From sequence record MW233709: a stretch of DNA of 64,000 nucleotides. The stretch is one strand, 5' to 3'. Source of the DNA: Escherichia phage UPEC01. This document shows positions 14,115 to 20,904 of this stretch, one piece after another; position 1 is the first letter of the stretch, and every line of letters starts with the position of its first letter. Position numbers and translations under genes: made by a program. The notes beneath the pieces were generated by a model. The model did not search any database, was not told the DNA's origin, and worked only from the letters and a program-made list of their open reading frames with translations.

Positions 14115-14198
14115 ACATCCTCCTTTCTTGTATTTATGCTTTAAACCAATACGATATAATTAACATACAAACAACATGAATTGATAAGGAAAAATATA

Positions 14199-14717
14199 AT
14201 GGCACATTTTAACGAATGTTCTCAACTGATTGCTGGTGTTGATAAAGCTCAAGGCGCTTATGATAATGCAATTTTTGAAGGCACTGACCCACTGCAAATT
14301 ATGCTTGATATGCAGAAATCGTTGCAGGTTCGTCTGGCTAAAGAAAAACCAGAATATAACGAACATCCTGATAACCTGGCGACTGCTGGTGAAGTTGTTA
14401 CCTGGCTCCGCAACCAGAAAGATTATATTGATGATGAATTCCGTGAACTGATTACTGCATTAGGTGGCATGTCCAATGGCGAGAAAGCTGCCTCGGCCGT
14501 ATGGAAGCCTTGGAAAGCACAACATGGCGAAATGCAGCAAACCCTAATTAATGATTTATCTCCTGAAGACCAGCTCGAAATTAAATTTGAGATGATTGAT
14601 ATCCTGCACTTTGTTCTGAATATGTTCCATGGCCTTGGACTGACTGCAGAAGAAATCTTTAAATTGTATTACCTGAAAAATGCTGAGAACTTTGCTCGTC
14701 AAGACCGAGGTTATTAA
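14199..14717 (+). CDS. 56: dCTP pyrophosphatase gp56 (MazG-like dCTPase/dUTPase)
   Basis: 172 aa; MAHFNEC...EIFKLYYLKNAENFARQDRGY strongly T4 gp56-like; track start 14181 is a TTG. Confidence 0.85.
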   Translation: MAHFNECSQLIAGVDKAQGAYDNAIFEGTDPLQIMLDMQKSLQVRLAKEKPEYNEHPDNLATAGEVVTWLRNQKDYIDDEFRELITALGGMSNGEKAASAVWKPWKAQHGEMQQTLINDLSPEDQLEIKFEMIDILHFVLNMFHGLGLTAEEIFKLYYLKNAENFARQDRGY

Positions 14718-14998
14718 TGGCTCGTTTAAATAAACGTCAGCTTAAGAAAGCTCGCAAGAAATATATTAACGATATAATTGAAAATGTTAATACCGAAATC
14801 TTCGTAGAACTCTTATCTAATCAACTAAAACATTTATCTAAACATGAAATTGATATGAATACTGAAAATGCTAAAAATGTAATTGAAACTCATAATGCTT
14901 TTGCTAATGCAACAGCAGAATGGATGGCGAATCCTACTGCTGAAAATCTAGCTAAAATGACTGAAGCCAATAAAGCAGTTCAAGCCATCAAATTGTAA
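14717..14998 (+). CDS. hypothetical protein (93 aa)
   Basis: ORF overlapping gp56 stop (TAATG). Confidence 0.5.
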   Translation: MARLNKRQLKKARKKYINDIIENVNTEIFVELLSNQLKHLSKHEIDMNTENAKNVIETHNAFANATAEWMANPTAENLAKMTEANKAVQAIKL

Positions 14999-15039: not shown

Positions 15040-15273
15040 ATGGGTGGTTTCGTTAATATCAAAACCTTTACGCATCCAGCTGGTGAAGGTAAAGAAGTTA
15101 AAGGTGTTGAAGTATCTGTTCCGTTTGAAATCTATTCAAATGAGCACCGTATTGCCAATGCTCATTATCAGACTTTTCCTTCCGAAAAGGCCGCTTATGT
15201 CACCGTAGCGTCTAGTGCAGCTGATTGGCGAACTAAGAACGCGGCGATGTTTACGCCTACCCCAGTAGTTTAA
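15040..15273 (+). CDS. soc: small outer capsid protein Soc
   Basis: 77 aa; GYVNIKTF...HYQTFPSEKAAY matches T4 Soc. Confidence 0.85.
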   Translation: MGGFVNIKTFTHPAGEGKEVKGVEVSVPFEIYSNEHRIANAHYQTFPSEKAAYVTVASSAADWRTKNAAMFTPTPVV

Positions 15274-15349: not shown

Positions 15350-15547
15350 ATGTTAAACCGTTGGATTAAACCAAATAAAACTTTAGATGAAGTTATTGCC
15401 CATGATGTCCATTTTAAGTATGGTCTGGGTGTGTTTGATGAGGTTGTCGTACATTCATTCATGATGCACGATGATGATTCTTTAGAATTCAATATTGAAA
15501 TCCGTTGTGATGATGGTAAAGTTGAATTTAAACGAGGTTTTCTATGA
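15350..15547 (+). CDS. hypothetical protein (65 aa)
   Basis: ORF with GAGGAG RBS. Confidence 0.45.
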   Translation: MLNRWIKPNKTLDEVIAHDVHFKYGLGVFDEVVVHSFMMHDDDSLEFNIEIRCDDGKVEFKRGFL

Positions 15548-15885
15548 TTAGTTGGCTCAAGAATTTATTCAAGACCAAACCGAATGAAGGTGTGGTTCCC
15601 GTTAGCCTACCGGATGTTAAGCTAAGAGAATATGTTTACATGGGCGATGGCATGATGGAAGAAGTGGTCAAATCAAAATCAAAAGACCTATATTCTACAA
15701 TGTCAGAAGAAGACTTACAAAAACGTTTAACTCGACTGCAAGAACAAAGAGCTCAAGCCCAAAGCAGTATCGATACTACTTCGATTGTGGTTACCGCTGC
15801 TGCAGTTAGTTCGTGGACTGGTGATTCGTCTTATTCCTCCTATGATTCAGGAAGCTGCGATTCGTCTTCCAGCTCGTGTGATTAA
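15544..15885 (+). CDS. hypothetical protein with Ser/Cys-rich C-terminal tail
   Basis: 113 aa ending SSYSSYDSGSCDSSSSSCD. Confidence 0.5.
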   Translation: MISWLKNLFKTKPNEGVVPVSLPDVKLREYVYMGDGMMEEVVKSKSKDLYSTMSEEDLQKRLTRLQEQRAQAQSSIDTTSIVVTAAAVSSWTGDSSYSSYDSGSCDSSSSSCD

Positions 15886-16080: not shown

Positions 16081-16226
16081 CACAAGAAGAAGCTGAACGC
16101 CGGGCAAAAGAAGCACTGGATTTGCTTTTGAAAATTGGCAGTAAAATGATGGAAGAAAATGAAAAGTACATCAAGGAAAATAAAGTTCCTGATGGTCCAT
16201 TAGTTGGTAAGAGGAAAACATTATGA
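16077..16226 (+). CDS. hypothetical protein (49 aa)
   Basis: ATGA-coupled small ORF. Confidence 0.3.
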
Positions 16227-16711
16227 AAGTATATGAATTAGAATTCTATGTCCGTGATTCTGCTGGGCAAACACGACCTTACGATGCAACAGCCTGTCTT
16301 ATCTTTGCATATAATGGCATGGATTCGGTTACTGAGTTGGAAACAAAATTAATGAACCTGACGATGCCAGAAAACGTTATGCTGAAGGTATTTCATAGAA
16401 AAAACGTTAATGTGGCTGAAGGGTGTCCGTTTACTGTTTCCGAAGCTCTGCATATCAAAGGCTATCGTCACCCGGACCCATATGCAGAAGGTACTGCGGA
16501 TATTTTCTATAAAGATAGAGATAAAATGGCCACTGAACGTCTCCAAGGTCGCACATATCTGATTTCCACTACCGACGACCTTGCTGAAGTTGAACGTCAG
16601 ATTTGGAAGCACTTTGATATCGGCTTGCGCTTTACTTTAACAGAAGAAGCTATTCAAGATACTAAAATGCGTGCTCGTATGTATGGTTACGGTCCTATCG
16701 GTGGCTACTAA
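16223..16711 (+). CDS. hypothetical protein (162 aa; occupies T4 mrh position)
   Basis: ORF with GAGGAAAA RBS; size and position match T4 mrh but sequence not verified. Confidence 0.5.
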
Positions 16712-16890
16712 TGGATTTATTTGAACTTTTTGAAGAGCCTAAAGCTCCTACGGAAGCCCGTGTGGACCTAGTTGACGAACTTGATGCGATTATACAGAAG
16801 CACGGTTTTAGTCTCCCAATGGAAGTTCTGCGCGACCTGGCCTCATATTACGACGACCCACCTCCATGGGCACCGTGGGTGAAACAATGA
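16711..16890 (+). CDS. hypothetical protein (59 aa)
   Basis: TAATG-coupled ORF. Confidence 0.35.
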   Translation: MDLFELFEEPKAPTEARVDLVDELDAIIQKHGFSLPMEVLRDLASYYDDPPPWAPWVKQ

Positions 16891-17120
16891 ACTGGTTAAC
16901 AAATATCCCTACATCGGCGCTGGATATCGACCGGAAATACGCTCATAAGGAAGTCGAGCAACAAAAAATTAATCGCTTGCAAAGGCTTAAGACTGAATCC
17001 GAGACAATTAAAGTCGAAACCCCGATAAAATCGAAAAGTTCTTACTCATCATATCAATCTCCTATTGGCATGGCCACAGACATCGCTATCTTCGGCGTCC
17101 CACTTGGAGTATTTAAGTAG
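16887..17120 (+). CDS. hypothetical protein (77 aa)
   Basis: ATGA-coupled start (MNWLTN) preferred over track start 16866. Confidence 0.4.
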   Translation: MNWLTNIPTSALDIDRKYAHKEVEQQKINRLQRLKTESETIKVETPIKSKSSYSSYQSPIGMATDIAIFGVPLGVFK

Positions 17121-17176
17121 TTTACTTACTTCCCTCCTAATGACATAATGGTCTTTCTTACAACAGAGAGGCCATT

Positions 17177-17737
17177 ATGAACATCATCAAATCTGATACC
17201 GAACCCAACCAGTTAAAATTTAGTGAAATGGAGATAGCTTCATTATTTGAATGCCGTACATCAAAGGTTGATAAAACCTTGCATTCAAACATCAACTCAA
17301 TTATCAAGCCAAGGTTGTCTATACCCGATACAGTCTTGTGGCGCGGGGTAACCCAGCAAGAGATTGATTTGTTAGATGAAGCAAAAGAATCAATGCAACC
17401 TTTTGAATTTGGACGGATAACCTCCTTTACAGAAGACTATGGTATTGCCAGGGATTTTGCTGCAATGGAATATGCATCAAGGACTATCGTCAGATTGAAT
17501 CAGACAAAAGCTTTTTGTTACCATGATGCGATGCGCAAAATCGCGCTTGATGTTCCGCTGGAATTCTTCAATACAGTTTCTGGTTCCGAACAGGCAGCAA
17601 CGTTAAGACGTGAAGAATACATGGACATGATTGATTCTGAGCTTGAATGGTTTGTTCCAGTTGACCAGAAATTCGTGGTGGTTGATGCTGGATTTGTTGG
17701 TGATTATTATGTTCTTGACTGTGTACAAGAGCAATAA
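17177..17737 (+). CDS. putative ADP-ribosyltransferase (ModA/ModB-like), copy 1
   Basis: 186 aa; R-S-E class signature candidates WRGV ... SFTEDY ... SELEWFVP; T4 modA/modB position. Confidence 0.45.
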   Translation: MNIIKSDTEPNQLKFSEMEIASLFECRTSKVDKTLHSNINSIIKPRLSIPDTVLWRGVTQQEIDLLDEAKESMQPFEFGRITSFTEDYGIARDFAAMEYASRTIVRLNQTKAFCYHDAMRKIALDVPLEFFNTVSGSEQAATLRREEYMDMIDSELEWFVPVDQKFVVVDAGFVGDYYVLDCVQEQ

Positions 17738-17781
17738 GACACGTTAAGATGCTCCTATCAACTACTGATGAGGATAATAAA

Positions 17782-18396
17782 ATGCTGTACACTGATGACG
17801 TTTTGAATGGAATTATTGACACTGCCGCTTCTAGTGAGTCTTTTCGTGACCAATGTCAAGCAGAGATTGATGCTCTTTATACAGATAATGAGCAATCAGT
17901 ACTCTGGCAGTGTATGGAAAATAAACCTGACCTGATTCAAGAAGACTTAACCAGGATTATCCGCAACAATCTGAATACTACACCGCCGGCAGCGTTGTTC
18001 CGCGGTATATCAAAGAAAACCATGGAATACCTGGAAGATTTAAGATATGTTGGTGCGACAATTGAGTTCAACCGTGTGATGAGTTTTTCCAGAGACTGGC
18101 AGGTTGCAAGAAATTTCGCATCATATAGTTTCTATGGCACAAGGAATATTTTCTGCATAAACAATGCACCTTATGCGTATAACTATCAGGAAGCAATCTT
18201 TAAAATGATTTGCGGTGCTCCTCCTGAAGAGTTCAATGGTGCATATCCAGAAGCAACCAGGAAGTCAAACTTACACCTAGTTAATGATGAGGATGAGTTT
18301 ATGTTTCCCGCTGGGACTACGCTTCGCGTAGATTTGATTGAGAAACACCCATTGAATAACCTTTATACTGTTTGGCATTTGACTGTTTTGAACTAA
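17782..18396 (+). CDS. putative ADP-ribosyltransferase (ModA/ModB-like), copy 2
   Basis: 204 aa from ATG 17782; FRGIS ... SFSRDW ... EDEFMFPAG (R, S-x-S, E-x-E candidates). Confidence 0.45.
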   Translation: MLYTDDVLNGIIDTAASSESFRDQCQAEIDALYTDNEQSVLWQCMENKPDLIQEDLTRIIRNNLNTTPPAALFRGISKKTMEYLEDLRYVGATIEFNRVMSFSRDWQVARNFASYSFYGTRNIFCINNAPYAYNYQEAIFKMICGAPPEEFNGAYPEATRKSNLHLVNDEDEFMFPAGTTLRVDLIEKHPLNNLYTVWHLTVLN

Positions 18397-18456: not shown

Positions 18457-18484
18457 TGTACATGAAAGATGAATAGTGTATAAT
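18457..18484 (+). promoter_or_regulatory. early-type promoter
   Basis: AAAAAGTAGTGTACA ... TATAAT then leader AATTCCATACTGAGTTA. Confidence 0.5.
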
Positions 18485-18531: not shown

Positions 18532-19278
18532 ATGACTTTATCAAAAACCAAAACGCTGAAAGTTAAACGTCGCCTGGAACACACTCAAGCTTCTGCTAAA
18601 CGTCGTGGTAAGGACTTTAACCTGGATTTCAATTACCTGGTTAACATTCTTGACCAAAAAGTTTGTGCTTATTCTGGTGAAGCATTTAATAACTCTATTG
18701 AAGACGAGAAGTTATCATTAGAACGTTTTAACAATGATATTGGTTATATCAAGGGTAATGTTATTCCTGTTAAAAAGAAATACAATACCATGCGTTCTGA
18801 TTGGTCCTTGGATGAGCTTAAACAACGTCGCGATGATGTTGCTGTAAAAATTGCTCGCCCCTCTGCCAAGAAGATTGAAAAGTTAAATCTGACTTCAGAG
18901 AAATGGGAACAGATTAAAAAGTCATATACTCATATCAAGAACATCCAGCACAAACGTGATAATCGCGTTAAGCATTATGCTCAAATGAGTAAATCAGAGC
19001 AGTCCAAAGAAAACCAATTAAAAATGGTTGCTCTGAAGGCTCGCATTGATGGTTCCCGTGTTGCGGAAGGACATGAGCTTACTAAATTGAATGTCCTGCT
19101 CAAAGGTAATGACTGGAAAGTTACCAAGAAATTAACTGATGCTGAAACGCTTTTTGATTGCTATGATAAAATCATTCAAGGTCTTGAGCGTTTTGAGAAG
19201 ATTGGTTTTATTGGTAAATTAAAACTGAAACGTGGTCTGCCTTTGAACGCGTCAATTTTTAAACTGATTAGAGGTTAA
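18532..19278 (+). CDS. Srd-like protein (by position and size)
   Basis: 248 aa between mod-like genes and dda as T4 srd; basic N-terminus; not sequence verified. Confidence 0.4.
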   Translation: MTLSKTKTLKVKRRLEHTQASAKRRGKDFNLDFNYLVNILDQKVCAYSGEAFNNSIEDEKLSLERFNNDIGYIKGNVIPVKKKYNTMRSDWSLDELKQRRDDVAVKIARPSAKKIEKLNLTSEKWEQIKKSYTHIKNIQHKRDNRVKHYAQMSKSEQSKENQLKMVALKARIDGSRVAEGHELTKLNVLLKGNDWKVTKKLTDAETLFDCYDKIIQGLERFEKIGFIGKLKLKRGLPLNASIFKLIRG

Positions 19279-19282
19279 TGTG

Positions 19283-19579
19283 ATGTACTACGCATATGTG
19301 CTGGTTCACAAAGATAAAGATGGTTTTGAACGCCCATTGGAGTATGATGGAAAGGTTACCTTATACACCACAAAACCGGGCGCAGAGTATGAACTTGCCA
19401 ACTATTTATATACTACAAACCGCTATTTACGCATGGGACGTATTGAAACACGGTATACTCCCAGAAAATGGTGGTTTGATAAGCGGGAAACAAAAACTGT
19501 TTTTCCTACTGAAGAACACGCACGAGAATTGAAATTAGTTTTAGATACTTTATATGTTAAGCGAGTAAAATTGGCATGA
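19283..19579 (+). CDS. hypothetical protein (98 aa; dda.1 position)
   Basis: ATG 19283; track start 19280 is GTG. Confidence 0.45.
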   Translation: MYYAYVLVHKDKDGFERPLEYDGKVTLYTTKPGAEYELANYLYTTNRYLRMGRIETRYTPRKWWFDKRETKTVFPTEEHARELKLVLDTLYVKRVKLA

Positions 19580-20904
19580 TTAAATTTGAAGACTTGAACA
19601 CAGGACAAAAAGAAGCTTTTGATTATATCACTGAAGCTATTCAGCGACGTTCAGGGGAATGTATCACTCTGAATGGTCCAGCTGGTACAGGTAAGACCAC
19701 TCTGACAAAATTTGTCATTGACCATCTAGTGCGTAATGGAGTTATGGGAATTGTGCTTGCTGCGCCAACTCACCAGGCGAAAAAAGTTTTATCTAAATTG
19801 TCTGGTCAAACCGCGAATACAATCCATAGTATCCTGAAGATTAACCCGACCACATATGAAGACCAAAACGTTTTTGAACAACGCGAAATGCCTGACATGT
19901 CAAAATGCAATGTTCTGGTTTGTGATGAAGCAAGTATGTATGACGGGTCTCTGTTTAAGATTATTCTTAACTCTGTTCCTGAATGGTGTACTATTCTTGG
20001 GATTGGTGATATGCACCAGCTGCAGCCAGTTGACCCAGGAAGCACACAACAAAAGATAAGCCCATTCTTTACGCATCCTAAGTTCAAACAGATTCATCTG
20101 ACTGAGGTCATGCGAAGCAATGCTCCTATCATTGAAGTGGCGACAGAAATTCGTAATGGTGGTTGGTTCCGTGACTGTATGTATGATGGTCATGGTGTAC
20201 AGGGTTTCACCTCACAAACCGCTTTAAAGGATTTCATGATAAACTATTTCAGTATTGTAAAAGATGCTGATATGTTGATGGAAAACAGGATGTATGCGTA
20301 CACGAATAAATCAGTTGAAAAACTGAACAATATTATTCGTCGCAAGCTCTATGAAACGGATAAAGCATTTTTACCGTATGAAGTCCTGGTTATGCAAGAG
20401 CCACACATGAAAGAGCTGGAATTTGAAGGCAAGAAATTCAGCGAAACCATTTTTAATAATGGTCAGTTGGTTCGCATCAAGGATTGCAAATACACTTCCA
20501 CAATTCTCCGTTGTAAAGGTGAATCGCACCAGTTAGTGATTAATTACTGGGACCTGGAAGTTGAGTCAATTGATGAAGATGAAGAATATCAGGTTGACCG
20601 CATCAAAGTTTTACCAGAAGACCAGCAACCGAAATTCCAGGCATATCTGGCTAAAGTTGCTGACACATACAAACAGATGAAAGCCGCTGGTAAACGTCCA
20701 GAGTGGAAAGACTTCTGGAAAGCTCGCCGGACCTTCTTGAAAGTTCGGGCTCTTCCGGTCAGTACAATCCACAAGGCCCAGGGCGTTTCAGTAGACAAAG
20801 CATTCATCTATACCCCATGCATCCATATGGCCGAAGCTTCATTAGCGAGCCAGTTGGCTTATGTTGGAATCACACGAGCGAGGTACGACGCATATTATGT
20901 ATAA
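19576..20904 (+). CDS. dda: Dda DNA helicase (SF1)
   Basis: 442 aa; NGPAGTGKTT Walker A, strong similarity to T4 Dda throughout. Confidence 0.95.
   Translation: MIKFEDLNTGQKEAFDYITEAIQRRSGECITLNGPAGTGKTTLTKFVIDHLVRNGVMGIVLAAPTHQAKKVLSKLSGQTANTIHSILKINPTTYEDQNVFEQREMPDMSKCNVLVCDEASMYDGSLFKIILNSVPEWCTILGIGDMHQLQPVDPGSTQQKISPFFTHPKFKQIHLTEVMRSNAPIIEVATEIRNGGWFRDCMYDGHGVQGFTSQTALKDFMINYFSIVKDADMLMENRMYAYTNKSVEKLNNIIRRKLYETDKAFLPYEVLVMQEPHMKELEFEGKKFSETIFNNGQLVRIKDCKYTSTILRCKGESHQLVINYWDLEVESIDEDEEYQVDRIKVLPEDQQPKFQAYLAKVADTYKQMKAAGKRPEWKDFWKARRTFLKVRALPVSTIHKAQGVSVDKAFIYTPCIHMAEASLASQLAYVGITRARYDAYYV

Follow-up and report, generated by a model that had tools for sequence, protein, structure and literature searches.

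The 64,000-nucleotide stretch of Escherichia phage UPEC01 DNA that we analyzed (sequence record MW233709; the whole stretch is called the window below) carries two adjacent open reading frames (ORFs) on the plus strand, ORF1 (17177..17737, 186 residues) and ORF2 (17782..18396, 204 residues), which our analysis assigns to the Mod family of ADP-ribosyltransferases (ARTs). Judged from their sequences and predicted structures, both are very probably (roughly 90%) active arginine-specific mono-ADP-ribosyltransferases that are made early in infection and modify host proteins. A preliminary description, prepared from the DNA letters and a list of ORFs, had proposed a tandem pair of ARTs of the Arg-Ser-Glu (R-S-E) type at these coordinates, and the ORF list agrees with it on the coordinates and lengths of the genes, both of which lie on the plus strand. 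Near-identical genomes already carry these genes in annotated form, and their family, motifs and position are known as well; the record of phage VR7 names both genes, modB and modA. On our phylogeny, however, neither gene stands in a clean one-to-one orthologous relationship to its T4 counterpart.

The family assignment is carried by profile and pairwise searches. In profile searches, PHROG 832 ('RNA polymerase ADP-ribosylase') matches ORF1 over residues 9-171 of 186 with an E-value of 6e-27, and ORF2 with an E-value of 1e-38. Precomputed Pfam labels place the family PF26816 (Mod_ADP_RT) on the cluster representatives P0001 and P0002, which are 94% identical to ORF1 and 98% identical to ORF2, respectively, and also on metagenome contigs, in gene pairs syntenic with that of the window. 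Thus, the search against ART families that the preliminary description had named as its first check is positive for both proteins. In BLASTP comparisons with the T4 proteins, ORF1 is 32% identical to ModB (E 6e-23, 78 bits) and 27% identical to ModA (E 8e-13, 50 bits), while ORF2 is 35% identical to ModB (E 2e-28, 94 bits) and 34.5% identical to ModA (E 2e-19, 69 bits). The two window proteins are 27% identical to each other (E 9e-18), which fits the earlier remark that the copies are highly diverged; T4 ModA and ModB show a similar value (30%). A word-indexed homologue search returned few relatives, and an exhaustive search of cluster representatives returned 77 clusters at E <= 1e-3. The nearest relatives of ORF1, going by the names of the cluster members, are almost all metagenome proteins.

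The catalytic signature of the R-S-E clade is present in both proteins and in the expected order, as LWRG, SFTEDY and SELEW in ORF1 and as LFRG, SFSRDW and EDEFMFP in ORF2. In ORF1, Arg56-Gly57 (codons 17342..17347, plus strand) would supply the NAD-binding arginine (NAD, nicotinamide adenine dinucleotide), aligns with R73-G74 of T4 ModB and lies on a predicted strand (54-57); Ser83-Phe84-Thr85 (17423..17431, plus strand) forms the S-x-S/T element, with an invariant S83, on predicted strand 82-85; and Glu155-Leu156-Glu157 (17639..17647, plus strand) forms the E-x-E element with the putative catalytic glutamate, aligns with E171-Q-E173 of T4 ModB and has E157 at the opening of predicted strand 157-160. 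The corresponding elements of ORF2, all on the plus strand, are the invariant Arg74-Gly75 (18001..18006; predicted strand 71-75), which aligns with R72 of T4 ModA and R73 of ModB; Ser101-Phe102-Ser103 (18082..18090; predicted strand 100-103), in which the first serine is invariant; and the E-x-E element Glu170-Asp171-Glu172 (18289..18297), in which both glutamate columns are invariant and E172 opens predicted strand 172-175. The columns that hold R56, S83, E155 and E157 of ORF1 and R74, S101, E170 and E172 of ORF2 are those of R73, S99, E171 and E173 in T4 ModB and of R72, S96, E163 and E165 in T4 ModA. The arginine, glycine, serine and both glutamates are invariant in 23 of 23 aligned homologues from nine genera, so that the conservation in orthologues, which the preliminary description had made a further point to check, is found; an alignment of 18 sequences likewise has the R-S-ExE columns invariant, and across 49 family representatives conservation in these columns is complete or no lower than 90%, with Arg56-Gly57 of ORF1 invariant. 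Given this column-for-column alignment with T4 ModA and ModB, the quoted motifs are not chance strings. Among R-S-E enzymes, E-x-E, as opposed to Q-x-E, is associated with arginine specificity, and the predicted specificity of the window proteins follows from their having E-x-E rather than Q-x-E. The relevance of these positions is illustrated by T4 ModB, in which the R73A/G74A exchange abolishes both ADP-ribosylation and RNAylation (PMC10468400), and in which E173 is described as essential for activity in a preprint that cites Tiemann 2004 (bioRxiv 10.1101/2025.07.11.664405).

Structure prediction points in the same direction. AlphaFold2 models built on the 18-sequence alignment reach a mean predicted local distance difference test score (pLDDT) of 88.0 and a predicted template modelling score (pTM) of 0.81 for ORF1, and 92.9 and 0.86 for ORF2. 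In both models the arginine lies on a strand, the serine on the next core strand, and the second glutamate stands at the start of the strand after a long helix, a layout that we take to be the canonical R-S-E arrangement of C3-like structures. When the models were compared with the Protein Data Bank (PDB) using Foldseek, the best 50 listed matches were R-S-E ARTs in both cases, and matches at E <= 1e-3 numbered 82 for ORF1 and 106 for ORF2; the best 50 include HopU1, iota toxin Ia, C3bot, C3lim, CDTa, Plx2A, Certhrax, Vis, XopAI, VIP2 and Tre1, with the C3, Certhrax, CDTa and VIP2 folds at the top for ORF2. Against predicted viral structures, the ORF1 model gave template modelling (TM) scores of 0.75-0.92 to Mod proteins from further T4-like phages. 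Searching PDB chains with each protein as a single sequence found no relatives, and a profile of the 49-member family, run against PDB sequences, had the arginine-specific Vis toxin as its best match (E 0.01), with the YRG, STS and ExE elements aligned. Taken together, the models allow us to say with confidence that both proteins are predicted to adopt the ART fold.

Several results weigh against the assignment of both genes as active Mod enzymes and have to be set beside this evidence. Local Pfam, NCBIfam and PADLOC scans of the two proteins gave nothing above threshold; the local Pfam-A copy did not list PF26816, and the family call is based on the PHROGs and the precomputed Pfam labels. The sole ART signal from Pfam, DRAT (PF07357), lies below threshold (E-values of 0.006 and 0.087), and with scores of 12.4 and 16.2 bits neither protein reaches the gathering threshold of 25 bits; the signal reflects the shared R-S-E core alone. 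No solved Mod protein structure was found among the PDB chains, and the same preprint also states that none exists (bioRxiv 10.1101/2025.07.11.664405); because no Mod structure has been solved, the fold evidence comes from predictions. Our literature search found no biochemical work on either protein or on any Gaprivervirus Mod protein. The N terminus of ORF1 is about 20 residues shorter than in other family members (21 residues shorter than in T4 ModB), and orthology to the T4 proteins is weak in the tree described below, both for ORF2 with ModA and for ORF1 with ModB. The weak Pfam-A matches to Sld5 and FTR were likewise below threshold and were set aside.

The sub-threshold DRAT matches, as the only output of the local Pfam-A scan that touches ARTs, might be taken to mean that the motif resemblance is due to chance and that the ORFs are unrelated to ARTs. 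This explanation is refuted by the profile matches (E-values 1e-27 to 1e-38), the BLASTP matches (down to 1e-28, against T4 ModB) and the fold matches, and its probability is negligible. Tandem paralogues often lose one activity and several phage genera manage with a single Mod gene, and one of the two copies might accordingly be a catalytically dead paralogue, that is, a pseudo-enzyme or a decaying duplicate. Both proteins, however, retain an intact and invariant R, S and ExE, each gene has its own Shine-Dalgarno sequence, and further lineages retain the pair at 40-60% identity. In addition, both genes are under purifying selection: relative to VR7, the ratio of non-synonymous to synonymous rates (dN/dS) is 0.107 for ORF1 (29.5 synonymous and 14.5 non-synonymous differences) and 0.070 for ORF2. 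Because the catalytic residues are intact and selection is purifying, a dead paralogue is very improbable.

The arrangement of the pair suggests an early transcription unit. A pattern scan identifies a putative T4-early-type sigma-70 promoter at 17120..17149 on the plus strand, composed of a -35 element GTTTAC (17120-17125), a TG dinucleotide (17141-17142) that begins 15 nucleotides after GTTTAC, and a -10 element CATAAT (17144-17149) placed 18 nucleotides after the -35 hexamer. The GTTT, TG and TATNAT core is invariant and in register upstream of the first ART gene in nine genomes from eight genera, including T4 modB. Early promoters of T4 combine a GTTTAC -35 element with an extended -10 element, and since the window promoter is of this class, early transcription by the unmodified host polymerase is the likely mode of expression. 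ORF1 and ORF2 are probably co-transcribed, since a gap of only 44 nucleotides separates the two genes and the pattern scan found no convincing terminator in it. Each gene is preceded by a Shine-Dalgarno sequence on the plus strand: GAGAGG at 17166..17171, 5 nucleotides 5' of the ORF1 start codon and within a GGAGG-like block that is conserved in the upstream alignment, and GAGGA at 17770..17774, spaced 7 nucleotides from the ORF2 start codon at 17782. This spacing, together with the MLY N terminus that falls at the position equivalent to 17782 in homologues from eight genera, identifies the 204-residue form of ORF2 as the right one; an alternative start at 17749, which would give 215 residues, lacks a good Shine-Dalgarno sequence and was rejected. 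Residues 1-11 of ORF1 are predicted to be disordered in the AlphaFold2 model. Downstream, the 135-nucleotide gap between ORF2 and srd contains a strong sigma-70-like site (18457-18484; TGTACA-16-TATAAT, 10/12 matches), which suggests that srd has a promoter of its own.

Comparison with known ARTs helps to define what kind of enzymes these may be. T4 ModB (NP_049636, 207 residues) belongs to the same family, occupies the slot of ORF1 and has an early-type promoter upstream, although its identity to the window proteins is 32% (ORF1) and 35% (ORF2), ORF1 is 21 residues shorter at the N terminus, and the two stand apart in the tree. T4 ModA (NP_049635, 200 residues) shares the family, the catalytic residues and the slot of ORF2 immediately upstream of srd, although it is 27-34% identical to the window proteins, sits on a very long branch, has S-A-S where they have S-F-S/T, and groups with the ORF2 clade at 32% support. 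The more distant toxins and effectors C3bot, iota Ia, CDTa, VIP2, Certhrax, Vis and HopU1 have in common with the window proteins the predicted fold, in which strand 1 carries the arginine, strand 2 carries S-x-S, and the E-x-E loop precedes strand 5. The C3-like and binary toxins differ from them in sequence (8-15% identity, with TM scores of about 0.5), and the window proteins lack secretion or translocation domains and, as early proteins of a phage, would act within the infected cell. C3 enzymes carry Q-x-E and are asparagine-specific, whereas the window proteins carry E-x-E. T4 Alt and the head-packaged ARTs of the VIP2 family also belong to the R-S-E clade and have the general role of modifying host proteins (PMC9503650), and the same review describes the Mod proteins as the 'Mod family of the RSE clade' (PMC9503650). 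Alt is large and packaged in the virion, in contrast to the window proteins, which are stand-alone catalytic domains of about 200 residues and are predicted to be expressed after infection. A scan of the window with the Mod profile turned up no Alt-like gene.

The genomic position of the pair is that of the T4 mod genes upstream of srd and dda, as had been proposed, with the same flanks as in T4 (modA.2 on one side; srd, dda.1 and dda on the other). One correction is needed: the T4 transcript runs modA.2, modB, modA, srd, dda.1, dda, so the order is modB followed by modA. In the window, all on the plus strand, an Mrh/modA.3-like gene (16223-16711; PF24070, phrog_1234), a modA.2-like gene (16711-16890; phrog_1647) and a small Gaprivervirus ORF of 84 residues (16866-17120; phrog_14077, E 4e-43), which overlaps the end of modA.2 by 25 nucleotides, precede ORF1, and srd (18532-19278; phrog_1400, E 1e-98), dda.1 (19280-19579; PF25693) and the dda helicase gene (19576-20904; phrog_325, PF18343) follow ORF2. 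The counterpart of the 84-residue ORF in VR7 is VR7ORF023c, and T4 has no gene at that position.

By DNA comparison, the window is that of a Gaprivervirus, a T4-type coliphage about 95% identical to VR7, itself classified in this genus, and the 1.4-kilobase stretch around the pair is 94-96% identical to coliphages TH40, MN01, VR7, VR20, VR25, VR26 and others. The RefSeq record of VR7 labels the upstream gene (561 nucleotides) modB and the downstream gene (615 nucleotides) modA, with the product 'RNA polymerase ADP-ribosylase'; its neighbours are mrh.2, mrh.1, srh, modA.4, modA.3, modA.2 and the small ORF upstream, and srd, dda.1 and dda downstream. The VR7 pair (NC_014792 / HM563683; YP_004063703, YP_004063702) therefore represents the same genes in a sister isolate, alike in gene lengths, order and neighbours, and differs by point changes only (44 and 24 nucleotide substitutions, mostly synonymous; ORF1 is 94% identical to VR7 modB). 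Elsewhere, VR7 carries segF between gene 56 and soc, which the window lacks, and this amounts to a presence/absence difference of a mobile gene between close relatives.

The relationship of the two proteins to their T4 namesakes was addressed with a neighbour-joining tree (Kimura distances, 191 columns, 500 bootstraps), in which the deep branches are uncertain. ORF2 falls into a slot-2 clade with the RZ, Dhakavirus and Mosigvirus proteins and two metagenome proteins (96% bootstrap); this clade joins T4 ModA at 32% and T4 ModB at 0.6%. ORF1 forms a separate clade with its RZ counterpart and P0015 (99%), which is joined by P0029 and P0034 at 81%, and it groups with T4 ModB at 0-2%, so that the tree places it in a clade of its own and not with ModB. 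The slot-1 proteins of Dhakavirus and Mosigvirus pair at 100% and lie next to single-copy proteins, in a wider grouping supported at 46%. The interval from modA.2 to srd holds two Mod genes in Tequatrovirus, Mosigvirus, Dhakavirus and Gaprivervirus, and one in Gelderlandvirus (S16), Jiaodavirus (pKp20), Winklervirus (X20, Virsaitis27) and Karamvirus (CkP1). A pair of ORF1-type and ORF2-type genes with the same neighbours recurs in two metagenome contigs (182+200 and 183+204 residues).

Under strict T4 orthology, ORF1 would be ModB, modifying S1, EF-Tu and trigger factor and attaching NAD-capped RNA to S1 and L2, and ORF2 would be ModA, modifying Arg265 of RpoA. The order of the slots, which matches modB then modA in T4, the higher score of ORF1 against ModB than against ModA (78 vs 50 bits) and the more frequent joining of the ORF2 clade with ModA (32% vs 0.6%) speak for this scheme. 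The tree and BLASTP pull in different directions for ORF2, however, as it scores better against ModB than against ModA (94 vs 69 bits) and has a ModB-like N-terminal block (EQSVLWQCME). For ORF1, the 0-2% support with ModB and an identity, in the tree alignment, of 26-29% to T4 ModB and to the Dhakavirus and Mosigvirus slot-1 proteins also count against it, and since several genera have a single gene in the slot, a division of roles between two enzymes is not necessarily ancestral. We therefore consider strict orthology of both genes rather unlikely. ORF2 is plausibly, with weak support, the orthologue of the ModA-slot gene. Our reading of ORF1 is that it represents a distinct Mod lineage, whether as a rapidly evolving orthologue of ModB or as a replacement. 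The names modA and modB in VR7, and outside Tequatrovirus generally, follow gene order and are positional.

The replacement alternative takes ORF1 for a lineage-specific third subtype of Mod protein, which would have displaced the ancestral slot-1 gene and would have its own target or substrate preference. It is favored by the separate ORF1 clade (99%, and 81% with P0029 and P0034), by the shortened N-terminal helical region of ORF1 and by the identity distribution: among 927 phage records matching ORF1, identity is at least 90% in 32 and then drops straight to at most 32% outside Gaprivervirus, while relatives of ORF2 exist at 64-67% and 52% identity. It also agrees with an independent exchange of the two slots, as seen in the RZ comparison (94% for ORF1 and 67% for ORF2). 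On the other hand, fast divergence of one orthologue could give the same tree, the resolution of a neighbour-joining analysis of about 190 columns is weak at such depth, and the catalytic residues and the fold are unchanged. Replacement by a third subtype is accordingly a possibility that we hold only tentatively. Its more specific form, in which the ORF1 type (Gaprivervirus plus the metagenomic P0015, P0029 and P0034) constitutes a third Mod subfamily that came to occupy the modB slot by a swap and acts on a target or a NAD-derived substrate unlike those of T4 ModA and ModB, is doubtful.

Within Gaprivervirus itself, phage vB_EcoM_RZ (locus 1601-2820), and likewise DK-13 and P479, have an ORF1 that is 94% identical and an ORF2 that is 67% identical to those of the window, and the RZ-type ORF2 is closer to the Dhakavirus type. 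The histories of the two Mod genes thus differ within the genus, and the comparison suggests a recombination breakpoint at or near the 44-nucleotide gap between ORF1 and ORF2. Some genomes of Tequatrovirus have an additional, shorter gene of the Mod family as a third copy; in VEc20 (locus 2019-2504) it encodes 161 residues and lies beside a gene annotated as thioredoxin and far from modB-modA, and phage ACG-C40 encodes a similar Mod-family protein of 161 residues.

A few other features of the window and of related records deserve mention. An ORF of 93 residues (14717-14998) lies between the dCTPase gene (14181-14717) and soc (15040-15273); its first 48 residues alone match phrog_5782, and VR7 has the homing endonuclease gene segF there. 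The Mrh.1-like protein (15544-15885; phrog_2031) ends in an unusual Ser/Asp/Cys-rich C-terminal tail, …GDSSYSSYDSGSCDSSSSSCD. In the public record of Salmonella phage vB_SalD_ABTNLS3, the small gene modA.2 (locus 1312-1500) carries the erroneous label 'molybdenum ABC transporter periplasmic molybdenum-binding protein ModA', evidently because the two gene names coincide. Rfam and tRNA scans of the whole window were empty.

How the two enzymes may act can be outlined from T4 and from the R-S-E clade. Host RNA polymerase would transcribe both genes from the one conserved early promoter immediately after infection; the products would bind NAD+ through the Arg-Gly of strand 1 and the Ser-x-Ser/Thr of strand 2; and the second glutamate of the E-x-E loop would drive the attachment of ADP-ribose to arginine side chains in host proteins, a modification that would form part of the takeover of the host. 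In T4, ModA modifies Arg265 of both alpha subunits of RNA polymerase (PMC2988021), and ModB has S1, EF-Tu and trigger factor as its targets of modification and also links NAD-capped RNA to S1 and L2 (PMC10468400, PMC2988021). By position, ORF1 corresponds to the T4 ModB slot and ORF2 to the ModA slot, and a transfer of the T4 targets along these lines would be a positional guess that is unlikely to hold as a whole. As the phylogeny gives weak support to ORF2 with ModA and none to ORF1 with ModB, neither the T4 targets nor RNAylation, which has no recognised sequence signature, should be assumed for either gene. By analogy with T4, it is reasonable to suppose, as the preliminary description did from the divergence of the two copies, that they may have distinct host targets.

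Mod ADP-ribosyltransferases are a textbook part of host takeover by T4, and our analysis confirms the existing annotation of these genes as correct; the identity of the genes by itself adds nothing new. What the comparison does call for is caution, in that the Mod family consists of several deep lineages, some genera have a single copy, and the T4 targets and the RNAylation recently demonstrated for T4 ModB should not be carried over to it automatically. The slot-1 enzyme of Gaprivervirus is a reasonable choice for surveys of the substrate range of Mod proteins. If a third subfamily has indeed been swapped into this slot, the modB-modA pair of slots would be an exchangeable cassette of host-takeover enzymes.

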